A DNA stretch of 7,929 nt from Candidatus Acetothermia bacterium (GTDB lineage: Bacteria; Bipolaricaulota; Bipolaricaulia; M55B111): positions 1 through 7,929 of the forward strand of contig JBKGZT010000053.1 in assembly GCA_046543235.1 (NCBI GenBank), in the 5' to 3' direction. The position numbers were made by a program. Shown here piece after piece: positions 1-7,929 of the stretch. The stretch's first letter is position 1. Each line of letters begins with the position of its first letter.

Positions 1-3000
1 CCCCCTTCAGGCAGGGCCGAAGGGGGTTACGAATAGATTTCCAAGAAAATCTATACTCCTACCAGCACCTGAACTCTCGACTAGGTAGTACTTGAATCGG
101 TTTGGACTTCCAGAGTTTGACCACTAATAGAAACGTCGCCAGAGGCGTTTTCAATCGTTAATTGGACGGTGTAATCTCCCGGATCATCGTAAGTATGTGT
201 ATCGGTTTCACCACTCCCCGTGCCTTCACCTTCCCCGAAGTCCCATTCGTAACTATCGATATCGCCAGTGGAATCAGAAGCGTCGAATTCGACTTCATCA
301 CCCTCCGTCGCCGGGTCCGGACTCATAGTGAATTCCGCATCCAACTCGGTCTCTTCAACCTCGACCGTTGCAGTTGTAGAATCGGTTGCACCGTCATCGT
401 CCGTCACCGTCAAGGTCACGGTGTAGGTGCCCGCTGTTTCGTAGGTATAAGTCGGGTTTTTCTGTGTACTGGTTGCATCTTCCGATTTGTTTGTTTTAAA
501 GTCCCATTCATATGTCTCTATGTCCCCGTCCGGATCCTCAGAGTTCTCACCGTAAAAGTTTATGGTCGTGCCGACTGCCACGCCGGATGATATCTCGGGT
601 GTCGTCGAAATCTTCGCTTCCGGATCCTGGTTGATAAAGCCACAACCCGTCAAAAGAAAGGTCAGGCCAAGAATCAGAACCGACAACAGACCTAAAGAAA
701 CGGCATTACGCGTAAACTTTGACACTATTTCGCCTCCCGGTCGAAAATTATTTTCATTTATATCCTAACCCCGAATTATATTACAATTTCACCTAGTAGC
801 TGCCAGGGTACTGGTTCGTTCCGAGCATACCGCTTTAATACTCCTAGCCCATTTTAAGAGGAACCCAAAGGACTATTAAGGTCATACGGCACCTGTAAGG
901 ATTACATCCGTCCCGTTACCACCTGGTAAATTCCCACCAACGCGAAATGTGCAAAATTCACTCAATAGAACTTTTGTCCTAACACTGGGATAATTATTTT
1001 AAAGGCGATAGACAACGGCGTCAATTATTTGGACGGGAAGACTTTTGTCACCCGAAGTTAACCGGAAAATTTGAATAATCACTTTTACGTATTTGTGCAT
1101 TTTGACTGGTAATAAACCAGCCATCCGGGGCGTTTTATTGACTCGGCTTCGGATAGTCGCTATCATCGTGATCGGCGCTTACAGGAGAATCAAGTTTTCT
1201 TTGGACCGACAACCGGAGGAAGAATTTGCCTTCAATGAAACCCGGACAGAAATTGCCATTTAAAATACTGGTTTTATCCATGCTCGGAACGTGCCTTCTG
1301 TTCTCTCCCCCAGCCGTTCAGGCCAAAGAACCGGGAACCGTTATGGAAGATTTCACCCTGTATGGCTACGGCGAGGACGAAGGGGAGCTTTCCTGGGAAC
1401 TCTCCGGGGAAAGAGGGGAACAGCAAAGCGACGGCCTTGTGGTTTTCGGATTCCAGCTCAAACTGAAGAGATCGGACGAGCTGGTTTCCCTGCTATCCGG
1501 GGAAAAGCTCAGGCTGGATGCAAGCGGGGAAGAAAAGGTTGCACATGTACCCGGCCGGGCGGAACTTAAAATCGGTGATCAATTGAAGGGAACGGCGAAC
1601 GAAATCAGTTATTACTTTTCCGGGGGGCGATTGACGGGGGAAGACCTTTCATTAACGGAAACTAGGGAATCCGGAAAAGTAACCTTGGAGGGAACCGGGT
1701 TTTCCTACGACTACAAAACGGAAGAAATCAACGTAAGCGAGGGTTTCAAATTGATCGGTCACGACTCTAACGGAGACCGAACCGAGATCTCGGGCGGGGA
1801 GCTGACCTGGCCGCCGGAGGGGAGGATCGAGATGGTCGGGGAGGTCGAGGCGACGCTTGCCTCCGGCTGGAAACTCGAGGCCGACAGGATGGTCTGGGAC
1901 CCGGAGGAGAGCCTGCTGGAAAGCAGCGGTTCGGCCAGCGCGGCCCGGGAGGGAACGGAGATAAGCGGTACCGCCATAAATTACGGAGGAGAAGAAGAGA
2001 AGATCGACGCGGTAGACGGTCTAATGGTAATCGAGGACGATTAAAGTGCTTCGAGCGCAGGGACTGATCAAGTACTACGGTTCCGAGGAGGTGCTGGCGG
2101 GGGTCGACCTCGCCCTGGAGCGTGAGGAGATCCGCGGCTTCCTCGGTCCGAACGGGGCCGGCAAGACGACGACCTTTAAAGTACTGGCAGGAGCGGAAGG
2201 GTACAGTCAGGGGACCATCCGGCTGGACGGACGGAAGCTGGACGGCCTGCCGATTCACCTCCGCGCTAGGCGGGGGCTAACGTTTCTGCCGCAGGAGACG
2301 TCGCTCTTCCGTGGCCTGACGGCCCGGGAGAACGTCGAGGTCTACCTGAAAGGTCCCAGAGCCGACGCGGCCGACTCCGAAAGGGACGTCGAGCGTGCCC
2401 TGGAACGGCTAAACTCCCGCGAACTGGGGGACAGGAAGGCCTCCAAACTCTCCTCCGGTCAGGGTCGGAAAATAGAAATAGCAAGGGCGCTGGCCCTGTC
2501 GCCAAGTTACCTCCTGCTCGATGAACCGTTCTCCGATCTCGACCCCCGTTCCGTGGCGGAGATCAAGGAGATCCTCGTCTCACTGACGGAAGAAGAAGGG
2601 GTAGGAATCATGATTTCCGACCACCGGGCCAGGGAGGCGCTGTCGATAACGGATCACAACTACCTGATAAAGGCGGGCCGGATCATTGCGGAGGGCGACT
2701 CGGAGGAGATCACCGGATCCGAAGTGGCCCGAGAATCCTACTTCGTCAACTGATTGAACCCAAAAAACCGACTTGCGCAAGCCGTCCGGGCCGGAGGGTG
2801 GAAAAACATGAAGAGATATGTATCCAGACAGGTTGTCGCGCTATTCCTGATCGCCCTGTTCGGGTTGATCCTGTTTACCTCACTGACTCTGGCGGTCCAG
2901 CTGTCGGATCTAATTCTGGACAGGAGCGAATCCTTTCTGACAGTTTTCAAGCTGCTGAGCCTGAAGATACCCGAGTTTATGGGGTTTGCCCTGCCGATTT

Positions 3001-6000: not shown

Positions 6001-7929
6001 TCTCGGTTTTGGTTTTCACCGCGGAGAAAACGATTTGGAGTTTCAACTGACCGGAAAACCCTTCCAGACATGGCTGAAAGATTTTTCTGCCGACATTGAT
6101 CTCGAGATATTTGATGGCTGGTCGCTCGGGCTGAGCGGCAAGTACGACCTGGTTGATGGAAACCTTTCCGAACTTTCTTACTCCGCATATAACACTATCC
6201 AGAACTGCCTGAAAGTTGGAATAAGCGGGGATGATACTGGTCTCTGGTTTGACGTCCAGGTCGTTGGGTTTTGAATAGACCATTCGTTAGGCCTTCGATT
6301 CTCCCCGCAGATAGTCAAGGAGTAGGTCGCTCGCCTCCAGGTTGTTTTCGAGGTCGAAGGTTTTAATCCCGTCCACTTTCTCCATCCAGTTCTGCTGGTA
6401 CTTTGCCAGGTGGCGAGTGTTCTTCTTTATCTCCTCGACGGCCTCCTCGTAGTCCATTTCCCCTCTGAGATATAGGGCCAGCTCCTTGTAACCGATCGTC
6501 TCCCAGGCCCCCCAATCGGGACCGAACCCTTCTTCCACCAGACCCTTTACCTCATCCAGTAGTCCTCTTTCCAGCATATCCTCCACCCGAAGATTTACCC
6601 TCTCGTACAGCACGTCCCGGGGGCGGTTTAGACCGATCTTCCTGAAATCAAAGGGTAGCGGTTTTGTCTCATCCTTCAACTCGCTGATCGGTCGGCCGGT
6701 TAACTCGTAAACTTCCAGTGCCCGTATCAGCCTCCTGGTATCGTTCGGGTGGATTTTCTCCGCCGAGCGCGGGTCAACTTCCTCCAGCCTCCCGTGAAGT
6801 TCTTCGCTCGGACTTTTCCTCAATCGCTCCCTGAGCTCCTCGTCGGCCTCCGGTCCTTCAAAAATGCCCTGGGTCAGGGCGATGATGTAGAGCCGACTCC
6901 CACCGACCACTATCGGCACGTTACCCCGCTCCCGAACTTCCTCGATCCTCACCTCCGCGTTGTCACGGAAATCCGCGGCACTGTACCTCTCTCGGGGGTC
7001 GAGAAAGTTTATTAAGTGATAGGGTAGTTCTTTTCGATAAGTCTCCGGGGGAGTGGCGGTCCCGATATCCATCCCTTCGTAAACCGCACGAGAATCGGCG
7101 GAAATTATCTCGCCACCTAGCTTACCTGCAACTTCGTGGACCAGCTCGGTCTTCCCGACGGCGGTCGGCCCGAGAACTATCGGGACGGAGTCTTCGACTT
7201 GGTTTTTCAAAGGATTAGGTTTCCAGGTCCGAGCTGTTGATTATCTCACCACCCCGGGAACGGATTTCCTCCAGTGCTTCCTCGCCGGCCTCCTCGTCCA
7301 CCGGTTCGGTGCAGTCCTCGAGCAAAAACAGTTCAAAGCCCTGATCGAGCGCATCCAGAGCAGTGGCCCGGACGCAGTAATCCAGCGCCAGGCCGGCCAC
7401 GAAGAGCCTCTCCGCGTCCCCTGACTCAAGGACATCGATCATCATCCTGCCAGCCGGGGTTTCTCCGCTAAAGCCGCTGTAGTCCGAACGATCCACTGGA
7501 TCGAAACCCTTCTTCAGCTTGAAATCTATTTGCTCGTCTTGCAGTCCCGGGTGGAATTCCGCTCCCGCTGTCCCCTGAACGCAGTGGGGCGGCCACTCTC
7601 CTCCGTTTTCCTTAAAGGAGTAGTGATCCTCGGGATGCCAGTCCCGCGTCGCCAGCGAATTAGGGAACCTATCGATCATGTCGTTTATCGTCTCCAACAG
7701 CTCGTCCCCTCCTGGCACGGCGAGCGCACCATCGGGGGGCAGGAAGTCGTTTTGGTAATCGACGACGATTAGCCAGTCGGCGGGATTAACTTTAATCATT
7801 GTTTTCCTCCCCTTCGTCTTATTGAACTAAAAATCGCTCCTTTCGAACTCGGCCTCTCTTTTCACTCTTTCTTCGTTTAACTATAACAAACAGAGGGCAC
7901 CGAACCGAGAAAATTCCAGCGACGCGGCG

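Follow-up and report, generated by a model that had tools for sequence, protein, structure and literature searches.

The window analysed here is a stretch of 7,929 nucleotides from a Candidatus Acetothermia bacterium of the phylum Bipolaricaulota (the source genome, G000, 87% complete). It contains four plus-strand ORFs, from 1226-2044 to 3956-6274, encoding an LptC-like protein, LptB, an LptF/G permease and a protein of 772 aa, which form one cluster as proposed in the first-pass annotation. The features of the window are the following:

81-725, minus strand: PKD-domain lipoprotein gene (PF18911, 1.1e-36; two PKD domains; lipobox Cys at residue 28)
1138-1166, plus strand: candidate sigma-70-like promoter upstream of lptC (10 of 12 consensus positions; consensus match only)
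1226-2044, plus strand: LptC/LptA-like bridge protein, 272 aa, with an N-terminal hydrophobic helix
2046-2753, plus strand: LptB ATPase (best family TIGR04406)
2808-3953 (open frame from 2754), plus strand: LptF/G permease with six helices (PF03739, 4.3e-75)
3946-3958, plus strand: fission point, comprising a candidate GGAG ribosome site, the lptF/G TAA, two bases and the lptD GTG in another frame
3956-6274, plus strand: LptD ORF, 772 aa
3956-4042, plus strand: predicted LptD signal peptide, residues 1-29 (helix 8-24 in the model; predicted cut after G29)
4043-4894, plus strand: LptA-like beta-jellyroll of LptD, residues 30-313, with 20 strand elements in the structure model
4745-4747, plus strand: jellyroll cysteine C264 (the TTC cysteine)
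4934-6274, plus strand: LptD-type outer-membrane beta-barrel, residues 327-769, with 28 strand elements (DSSP count)
6206-6208, plus strand: barrel cysteine C751
6287-7799, minus strand: miaA (TIGR00174, 3.9e-85) and a nicotinamidase-like gene (PF00857, 6.9e-28), convergent neighbours outside the system

The likelier start of lptF/G is the ATG at 2808, which is preceded by GGAGGG and agrees with the starts of homologs. Five promoter-like sites fall in 700-1300, compared with 1.2 expected. The PKD lipoprotein gene, divergent from the lpt genes, is found at the same position in three other genomes (G083, G026 and G070); in G085 a different gene lies there. Among the loci seen, the four-gene cluster is confined to two genera of the source genome's own family and is not phylum-wide.

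Identity of the Lpt components

Judged by homolog profile and predicted fold, the 772-aa protein is a true LptD, which bears out its earlier description as LptD-like. The AF2 model (pLDDT 91.4) matched solved LptD 4q35 in Foldseek (E 7.8e-24). VIA aligned it with 9rpw (Z 18.0, rmsd 4.2, 420 aligned residues), the jellyroll resembles LptA 2r19 (Z 13.4, rmsd 2.7, 122 aligned), and the top 28 rows of the structure comparison were all LptD. The single sequence gave no match to solved structures, whereas a profile of its homologs retrieved LptD structures 7omm (1.3e-7), 8h1r (1.9e-7) and 4n4r (1.8e-6). The protein had also been described as lacking a family; it indeed stays below every Pfam and NCBIfam cut-off, yet this is a threshold effect because sub-threshold matches to PF03968 (LptD_N, E 0.012) and TIGR03002 (LptA, E 0.2) are present, and five of its nine closest stand-alone homologs do pass PF03968. 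Profile surveys overlook this LptD. Its homologs, initially reported from 12 of 25 genomes, are indeed present in relatives but more widely than that, in 107 of 121 phylum genomes and in 55 of the 63 that are at least 90% complete.

C264, C751 and the C-terminal F772 are each kept in at least 90% of 104 aligned rows. C264 aligns with the N-terminal-domain cysteine of LptD 7omm, and C751 is likewise aligned with a 7omm cysteine. By position, at the base of the jellyroll and at the end of the barrel, the two cysteines correspond to those of the LptD interdomain disulfide, and such a bond is predicted here.

The previously noted weak LptC match of the 1226-2044 product lies below cut-off (PF06835, 19.6 vs 21 bits; TIGR04409, 26 vs 38 bits, 5.7e-6), as does a match to TIGR03002 (4.4e-5). 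A profile of nine homologs retrieved solved LptA (7.8e-7, positions 216-263) and, weakly, LptC (28-181), and Atlas neighbours with scores of 0.90-0.91 carry LptD_N/LptC. The protein may best be described as an elongated LptC/LptA-like hybrid. The PF03739 and ABC ATPase matches were reproduced. LptB scores 230.6 bits against TIGR04406 (cut-off 240), with the G003 and G001 orthologs above the cut-off, and LptF/G matches solved LptF (2.6e-6). Where canonical LPS transport has two subunits, LptF and LptG, a single LptF/G was found in the source genome. It is present in 114 of the 121 phylum genomes, 113 of which have one full copy of PF03739; G066 has two near-identical copies.

Canonical LptB2FGC-LptA-LptDE of Proteobacteria (PDB 4Q35, 9KN3, 6MHU) shares the LptD and jellyroll folds, the permease and ATPase families and the two LptD cysteine positions. 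The system described here differs in having one LptF/G instead of two, longer jellyrolls, about 28 barrel strand elements by the DSSP list of the model compared with the 26 strands of the canonical closed, laterally gated barrel, and in that no separate LptA, LptE or lipid A pathway was found. Family-specific profiles detected no further jellyroll in the source genome, and PF04390 gave no LptE match there, although this model detects only 3 of 14 controls; divergent LptA, LptE, AsmA-like or Lol proteins may go undetected in profile searches generally.

Fusion to the permease and its re-splitting

In other Bipolaricaulia the LptD homolog had been reported to be fused to LptF/G, and this is confirmed: in 95 of the 114 positive genomes LptF/G lies in an open frame of at least 940 codons, fused to LptD. 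PF03968 is detected in no more than 21 of the 121 genomes, each time inside the fusion frame. The fusion is retained across 10 families and also occurs in Bacillota and Thermotogota. In the source locus the two genes do not share one frame, the lptF/G stop being at 3951, while relatives read through the fission point. The stop and the frame change are real because contigs from four of four runs (one study) span 3951-3956 without gaps and four other genomes are also split, with junction sequences that differ. An assembly artefact is thereby ruled out.

In a tree of 49 rows, with hand-picked outgroups and some long branches, the split forms make up one clade (100/100) nested among fused forms, and a topology uniting the fused forms in a clade of their own is rejected (p-AU 4.1e-12); the split can therefore be rejected as the ancestral state. 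By this sequence comparison, the LptF/G-LptD fusion is ancestral in the phylum and the source locus is shown as derived, one lineage having re-split the fusion at the signal peptide and brought the genes together as an operon. Further stand-alone LptD forms with N-terminal signal peptides are P0032 and P0036.

A fusion of this type has been described in Thermotoga maritima. G4FGC1, the 'pABC permease', combines LptF/G, a jellyroll and LptD in one 122-kDa frame. Sexton et al. 2023 (PMC10160955) presented it as one envelope-spanning chain, with lipid transport to the outer sheath as its proposed role. It has the fusion order of the Bipolaricaulota relatives, in a diderm without lpx genes, and differs from the split source copy; the likeness is one of description rather than of aligned sequences. 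The consulted parts of PMC10160955 do not mention an internal cleavable signal peptide. Literature searches, largely outside subscription journals, retrieved no paper on Bipolaricaulota LptD, on the fusion outside Thermotoga or on its cleavage.

The seventh helix of the fusion

Ahead of the first LptD strand, the joint of the fusion shows basic residues followed by a short hydrophobic helix, then a small residue. This seventh helix resembles the signal peptide of LptD itself and is homologous in position to residues 1-29 of the split protein. A small residue occupies the predicted -1 position in all 11 stand-alone homologs; among 27 compact junctions, aligned by using the conserved PP[FL] as anchor, 23 have Ala or Gly there. 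The helix is less conserved (0.29) than the six permease helices (0.40-0.64), pLDDT drops to 47-54 there in the fusion model, and signal peptidase I is present. Unanchored signal-peptide rules discriminate poorly between the seventh and the true helices: a relaxed (-3,-1) rule, satisfied by the seventh helix in 91 of 110 cases, is also satisfied by helices 1, 3 and 5 in 73, 80 and 53 of 110, and a weight matrix gave helix 7 a median of 7.8, as against 7.2 and 5.4 for helices 4 and 3.

Evidence of another kind comes from Thermotoga. In the listed part of the published supplement for G4FGC1, covering 16 of the 25 and 25 of the 37 unique peptides, all 41 toga peptide rows start at residues 411-1013 and none earlier. 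The chance of such a pattern is 0.0014 at a proxy share of 0.24 and 0.07 at 0.10. Counting against a cut, the two non-toga samples yielded no spectra of this protein, and other inner-membrane permeases were also found in the toga fraction only.

Because all listed toga rows start at 411 or later, we favour cleavage: the fused LptF/G-LptD is probably a precursor cut at the seventh helix by signal peptidase I. The alternative, a single uncut polypeptide residing in both membranes, with the seventh helix as its tether in the manner depicted for G4FGC1, has in its favour the published reading of that protein, the retention of the fusion across families and phyla, the weakness of the motif tests and the lack of a cut N-terminus in the data examined. 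We nevertheless consider it unlikely, since the permease part contributes no listed toga peptide, the seventh helix is variable and modelled with low confidence yet keeps small -1/-3 residues, and fission at precisely this point was tolerated. Moreover, the barrel of an uncut chain would presumably have to reach BamA while anchored in the inner membrane. The re-read peptides suggest a revision of the envelope-spanning model in print, one that can be tested in a cultured organism.

Bacterial membrane polyproteins cut at an internal signal-like sequence have a precedent in FbcH of Bradyrhizobium japonicum, the cytochrome b-c1 precursor; it differs in that both products remain in the inner membrane, and the proteins are unrelated to Lpt.

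Envelope context and cargo

The rarity of LpxC, claimed earlier to occur in 1 of 75 genomes, holds, but the count here is lower: LpxC and KdtA were detected in none of 121 phylum genomes by profile searches with positive controls. LpxB gave three partial weak matches, and LpxA was found in none of five genomes other than the source genome, two closed genomes among them. Hao et al. reported a closed genome to be devoid of LPS genes. With lipid A genes not found, the cargo is very likely other than LPS, in support of the first-pass suggestion that the machine probably moves something different from lipid A. Basic residues of TM1, LptF R33 and LptG K34, bind lipid A phosphate (PMC6744409). Of 101 rows, 9 have Arg at the R33 position; since only 6 of 38 control LptF-LptG fusions of other phyla are basic there, the missing residue is not diagnostic. 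This leaves some room for an ordinary exporter of LPS in cells making a divergent lipid A-like molecule, for which the position of lptCB after pyrG, an order shared with the LPS loci of many diderms, may also be cited. However, such an exporter is highly improbable in view of the missing LpxC and KdtA, the two closed genomes without LpxA and the report of Hao et al.

The envelope of the phylum has been called hard to classify (PMC6092417, in the part consulted). Omp85 is encoded in 116 of 121 genomes. BamA and OmpH had both been listed as present; bamA stands, whereas OmpH in the source genome is below cut-off (28.6 vs 32.4 bits), though adjoining bamA. With TamB (1 of 121), MlaD (10 of 121) and LolA (6 of 121, weak) nearly absent, no lipid bridge other than Lpt is recognisable. 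In genus g13, which has a streamlined genome and represents one loss event, the Lpt machine has been lost and an intact bamA kept.

As to the cargo, we lean towards bulk membrane lipids, namely glycerolipids and glycolipids of ordinary kinds that go to the outer membrane. The rarity of TamB and MlaD counts for lipids. So do the small number of lipoprotein candidates in the source genome, where no Lnt was found either, and the inner-membrane lipids, enriched in glucolipids, of the Thermotoga toga (PMC10160955). The g13 loss sits uneasily with a role as the one source of bulk lipids, and the distribution of a diglucosyl-diacylglycerol-synthase-like gene does not follow that of Lpt. Diglucosyl-diacylglycerol was rejected as a universal cargo: two Lpt-positive genomes, G001 and G045, lack the gene, and Lpt-less G105 has a 105-bit homolog.

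Surface export of acylated proteins, as by LptD (BB0838) of Borrelia burgdorferi, we regard as somewhat unlikely, although several observations point that way. According to the consulted part of 10.1101/2022.12.21.521298, Borrelia LptB2FGCAD operates without LPS or LptE, has an enlarged modelled barrel of 28 strands, matching the strand elements counted here, and carries surface lipoproteins as shown cargo; it differs in its separate LptF, LptG and LptA, a long C-terminal LptD extension and no described fusion. Near-absence of LolA fits lipoprotein cargo as well, and so do the adjacency of lptCB to lgt, and of lgt to lnt, in family f5, the lack of both Lpt and Lnt in g13, and the PKD lipoprotein gene facing lptC in four genomes of family f1. 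Against it, families f1 (10 genomes, including the source genome) and f7 (four) keep Lpt without Lnt, a crude scan of the source genome gave five lipobox matches, two of them plausible (one being the PKD protein), compared with 10 in Lpt-less G015, and g13 is a single loss in a streamlined genome.

Lpt paralogs serve sphingolipids elsewhere. A dedicated and so far undescribed glycolipid or glycan-lipid replacing LPS in the outer leaflet, comparable to the sphingolipids of Sphingomonas and Caulobacter, would also agree with the dispensability seen in g13, as might be expected of a surface coat, and with IagA/BgsA-like and Dgs-like glycosyltransferase matches (under cut-off) in the source genome. 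It appears improbable, the sole candidate tested having the patchy distribution given above and no cargo gene being linked to the fusion in the loci examined. In the consulted part of 10.64898/2026.04.12.717747, Caulobacter LptF2/G2/C2 and the Sphingomonas sphingolipid Lpt use Lpt parts for a non-LPS lipid, as is proposed here, but are paralogs in the cargo synthesis locus with a heterodimeric permease.

In the mechanism that we propose, LptB2 and two copies of the single LptF/G, presumably a homodimer, would draw cargo with a lipid anchor out of the inner membrane at its outer face. The cargo would pass along the elongated LptC/A hybrid, in direct contact with LptD, to the elongated LptD jellyroll, and the barrel, folded by BamA, would insert it in the outer membrane. 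Fused LptF/G-LptD would be made as one precursor in which the signal peptide survives as the seventh helix, and the signal peptidase I cut would release two ordinary proteins; in the source lineage the gene was re-split at that signal peptide. Architecture, non-LPS cargo and cleavage, jointly, of a minimal four-gene Lpt bridge seem to us reasonably likely. More tentatively, and as possible rather than probable, the fused precursor would be cut into inner- and outer-membrane proteins both in Bipolaricaulota and, by the peptides, in Thermotoga; the homodimeric, LptA- and LptE-free machine would be the sole recognisable bridge, carrying ordinary lipids; and g13, with BamA and no Lpt, would mark a step to a protein-only sheath or to outer-membrane loss.

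LPS-free Lpt (Borrelia, Sphingomonas) and the LptF/G-LptD fusion (Thermotoga) are already published, and this is not a new kind of system. New here are the cut-precursor reading from the toga peptides, Lpt as the sole recognisable lipid bridge and a genus without Lpt keeping BamA. A complete minimal Lpt bridge is now placed in Bipolaricaulota, which bears on how outer membranes are assembled without LPS.

When the source genome was compared with Lpt-less G015, 490 of its 1177 ORFs had no match. A co-loss screen against the whole of G015, filtered by only ~0.69 Mb of other-family DNA, returned 45 of 250 testable genes as missing, mostly metabolic, and was set aside as unspecific. Genus g13 itself represents a natural knockout for cargo identification.

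The lpt cluster and its LptD

The four-gene lpt cluster described in the first-pass annotation is real, with LptF/G identified by PF03739 and LptD by profile and fold. It comprises the following genes:

1226-2044, + strand, lptC/lptA-like gene; weak LptC/LptA matches below cut-off
2046-2753, + strand, lptB; TIGR04406, 230.6 bits (cut-off 240)
2754-3953, + strand, lptF/G; PF03739, 4.3e-75
3956-6274, + strand, lptD (772 aa); weak LptD_N/LptA matches below cut-off, profile and fold

Profile results and Atlas neighbours suggest that the first gene encodes an elongated protein resembling LptC and LptA. 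A PKD-domain lipoprotein gene (81-725, − strand) is divergent from the operon and has the same placement in four genomes of the family f1, to which the window belongs (home genome G000, G083, G026 and G070; including L056:1803-2444, L059:101-484 and L062:2694-3056). Its product is a candidate cargo or helper of the Lpt machine.

Judging from profile matches and predicted fold, the 772-aa protein is LptD. Its single sequence found no match among solved structures, but a profile built from 50 homologs matched LptD (7omm, 1.3e-7), as well as LptA, and aligned C264 and C751 with LptD cysteines. The AlphaFold2 model, computed from 104 sequences (pLDDT 91.4, pTM 0.77), consists of a helix (residues 8-24), 20 strand elements up to residue 313 and 28 further ones up to residue 769. 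Foldseek matched this model to LptD with E 7.8e-24. VIA-align gave Z 18.0, with 420 residues superposed at rmsd 4.2, and only LptD among its best 28 rows; residues 29-208 also aligned with LptA (Z 13.4, rmsd 2.7). The TTC motif (window 4736-4780) widened to a cluster of four cysteines, C264, C267, C269 and C273, of which C264 and C267 are near-invariant in the phylum. The cluster may form a further disulfide or bind metal at the base of the jellyroll. According to Leonard et al., profiles found no lptD in atypical diderms; that absence is the same profile blind spot as met here. In our literature search, from which subscription journals were largely missing, we found no paper that treats LptD of Bipolaricaulota or reports that the fusion described below is cleaved.

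Fusion, fission and probable processing at the seventh helix

Of the 114 genomes with LptF/G, 95 carry it in an open frame of at least 940 codons. Five of the remaining 19 (G000, G026, G044, G066 and G070) carry the split form; the other 14 have shorter frames, mostly broken or near contig ends, several of which continue past the permease. In the window, lptF/G stops at 3951 and lptD starts with GTG at 3956 in a different frame, and contigs of all four sequencing runs (all from one study) bridge this junction without gaps. Fused proteins have six permease helices, followed by a seventh hydrophobic helix (helix 7) and the LptD part. This layout is seen in the model of P0127 (984 aa; assigned by its source to Ca. 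Bipolaricaulis sibiricus), with pLDDT 86 and low confidence at helix 7, and the same architecture is present in Bacillota (P0045) and in one Thermotogota Atlas cluster.

In a 49-row LptF tree, with outgroups picked by hand and some on long branches, the six split rows formed one clade (100/100), sister to fused G111 and P0017 (100/100) and nested in a phylum clade otherwise wholly fused (100/99). A constraint grouping the fused rows together was rejected (p-AU 4.1e-12). In the 14 intact fused loci examined, lptC and lptB lie away from the fusion, after pyrG and facing lgt; they are likewise separate in G111, a fused member of f1. Both the split and the operon of the window are thus derived. 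LptD homologs that stand alone and start with a signal peptide also occur outside the f1 split clade (P0032, 789 aa; P0036, 717 aa), and because the start of P0032 resembles the end of the permease linker, fission possibly occurred more than once. In G097 (L053:5940-8042) the fusion breaks off within the LptD jellyroll, some 80 residues past the permease, which may reflect a pseudogene or an assembly error.

The fused precursor is probably cleaved at helix 7. This helix occupies the position of the signal peptide of stand-alone homologs, with basic residues before it and small residues after it. When junctions were anchored on the conserved PP[FL], the inferred −1 residue was Ala or Gly in 23 of 27 compact junctions, and Ala, Gly or Ser in all 11 stand-alone family homologs. 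Conservation of helix 7 (0.29) is like that of the barrel, versus 0.40-0.64 for permease helices. An unanchored signal-peptide rule separated it weakly (91/110 vs 73, 80 and 53/110 for true helices). So did a weight matrix (median over 66 non-redundant rows 7.8, vs 2.1, 5.4, 3.3 and 7.2 for helices 1, 3, 5 and 4).

The Thermotoga maritima fusion G4FGC1 is described by Sexton et al. (PMC10160955) as an envelope-spanning LptF/G-LptA-LptD protein. Among the rows listed in their peptide table (16 of 25 and 25 of 37 unique peptides, all fully tryptic), 41 of 41 start no earlier than residue 411 (24 start positions among 27 different peptides), which speaks for cleavage, with the permease boundary inferred from family length. 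With Bipolaricaulota fusions as proxy, the permease part should yield 24% (range 10-38%) of observable peptides, and the chance of seeing none is 0.0014 (0.07 if the share is 10%). Non-toga samples gave no spectra of G4FGC1, and other permeases were likewise detected in the toga (outer sheath) only.

Distribution in the phylum and loss in one genus

The survey covered 121 phylum genomes, which are incomplete and related by kinship, so that absences mean "not found". LptD homologs were detected in 107 genomes (55 of 63 at ≥90% completeness), LptF/G in 114 and Omp85 in 116. All 21 LptD_N matches fall within the fusion frame. Each genome with LptF/G has a single full copy, except G066, where two near-identical lptB-lptF/G-lptD copies begin at contig ends (C10 and C32; L049, L050); these may represent a duplication or a strain mixture. 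Neither LpxC nor KdtA was found in any of the 121 genomes, with positive controls in the same searches. LpxB gave three partial weak matches across the 121 genomes, of a type also matching in Bacillus, and LpxA was not found in the five genomes searched, G000 being outside those five. A search of G000 for LptE, with a model of low sensitivity, gave no match. Hao et al. found no LPS genes in the phylum and considered a simple diderm envelope possible. Lpt systems that work without LPS have been published for Borrelia, Thermus, Deinococcus and Thermotoga (10.1101/2022.12.21.521298) and for Sphingomonas (Uchendu et al., 10.64898/2026.04.12.717747).

In one genus (G015, G031 and G105; completeness 89-93%), LptF/G was not found, LptD was not found by profile, and LptB was not above cut-off. 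Its pyrG-lgt gap measures 56-186 bases, versus 1534 in G045, where lptC and lptB occupy it. The regions lacking lptC-lptB are:

G015:C26:76907-79278, pyrG-lgt region, lptC-lptB deleted
G031:C79:12216-14714, pyrG-lgt region, lptC-lptB deleted
G105:C27:10982-13480, pyrG-lgt region, lptC-lptB deleted

Family-specific profiles gave no lpt matches over all 1.33 Mb of G015. The genus is also without lnt and the lptF/G-lptD fusion and keeps Omp85/bamA (intact frame of 720 codons in G015), possibly as an intermediate in outer-membrane reduction. G015 is streamlined, and its co-lost genes singled out no cargo. The loss suggests that Lpt is dispensable, which counts against Lpt as the only source of lipid for an essential bilayer, except in the case that the sheath of the genus is protein-dominated.

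Candidate cargo

Profile searches found TamB in just one of the 121 genomes (G107:C22, L070, which belongs to family f4), MlaD in 10, almost confined to f4 (7/7), and weak LolA matches in six; Grasekamp et al. also report no Mla in Bipolaricaulota. With these nearly missing, no bridge other than Lpt can be recognised, and bulk membrane lipid is therefore the favoured cargo. Lipid cargo was proposed for the Thermotoga toga by Sexton et al. (PMC10160955). The main alternative is that lipoproteins would be carried, by analogy with Borrelia (10.1101/2022.12.21.521298). The lptCB pair adjoins lgt and lnt, and the PKD lipoprotein gene faces lptC in its four genomes, as that alternative would suggest. 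However, Lnt, above cut-off in 100 of 121 genomes, is missing in 10 of 10 f1 genomes and four of f7, all with Lpt, and lipobox candidates in G000 are few. A comparison of TM1 basic residues gave no discrimination of cargo.

Lnt is missing from f1 and f7 as whole families; G000 has Lgt, and Lgt without Lnt would mean diacylated lipoproteins in a diderm. The Dgs/IagA-like glycosyltransferase of G000 does not track with Lpt across genomes. It belongs to a lipid cluster (L217:1245-3682, i.e. G000:C76:10644-13081, plus C76:8914-10083) with a second GT4 and an acyltransferase, and from these genes G000 probably makes glycosyl-diacylglycerols.
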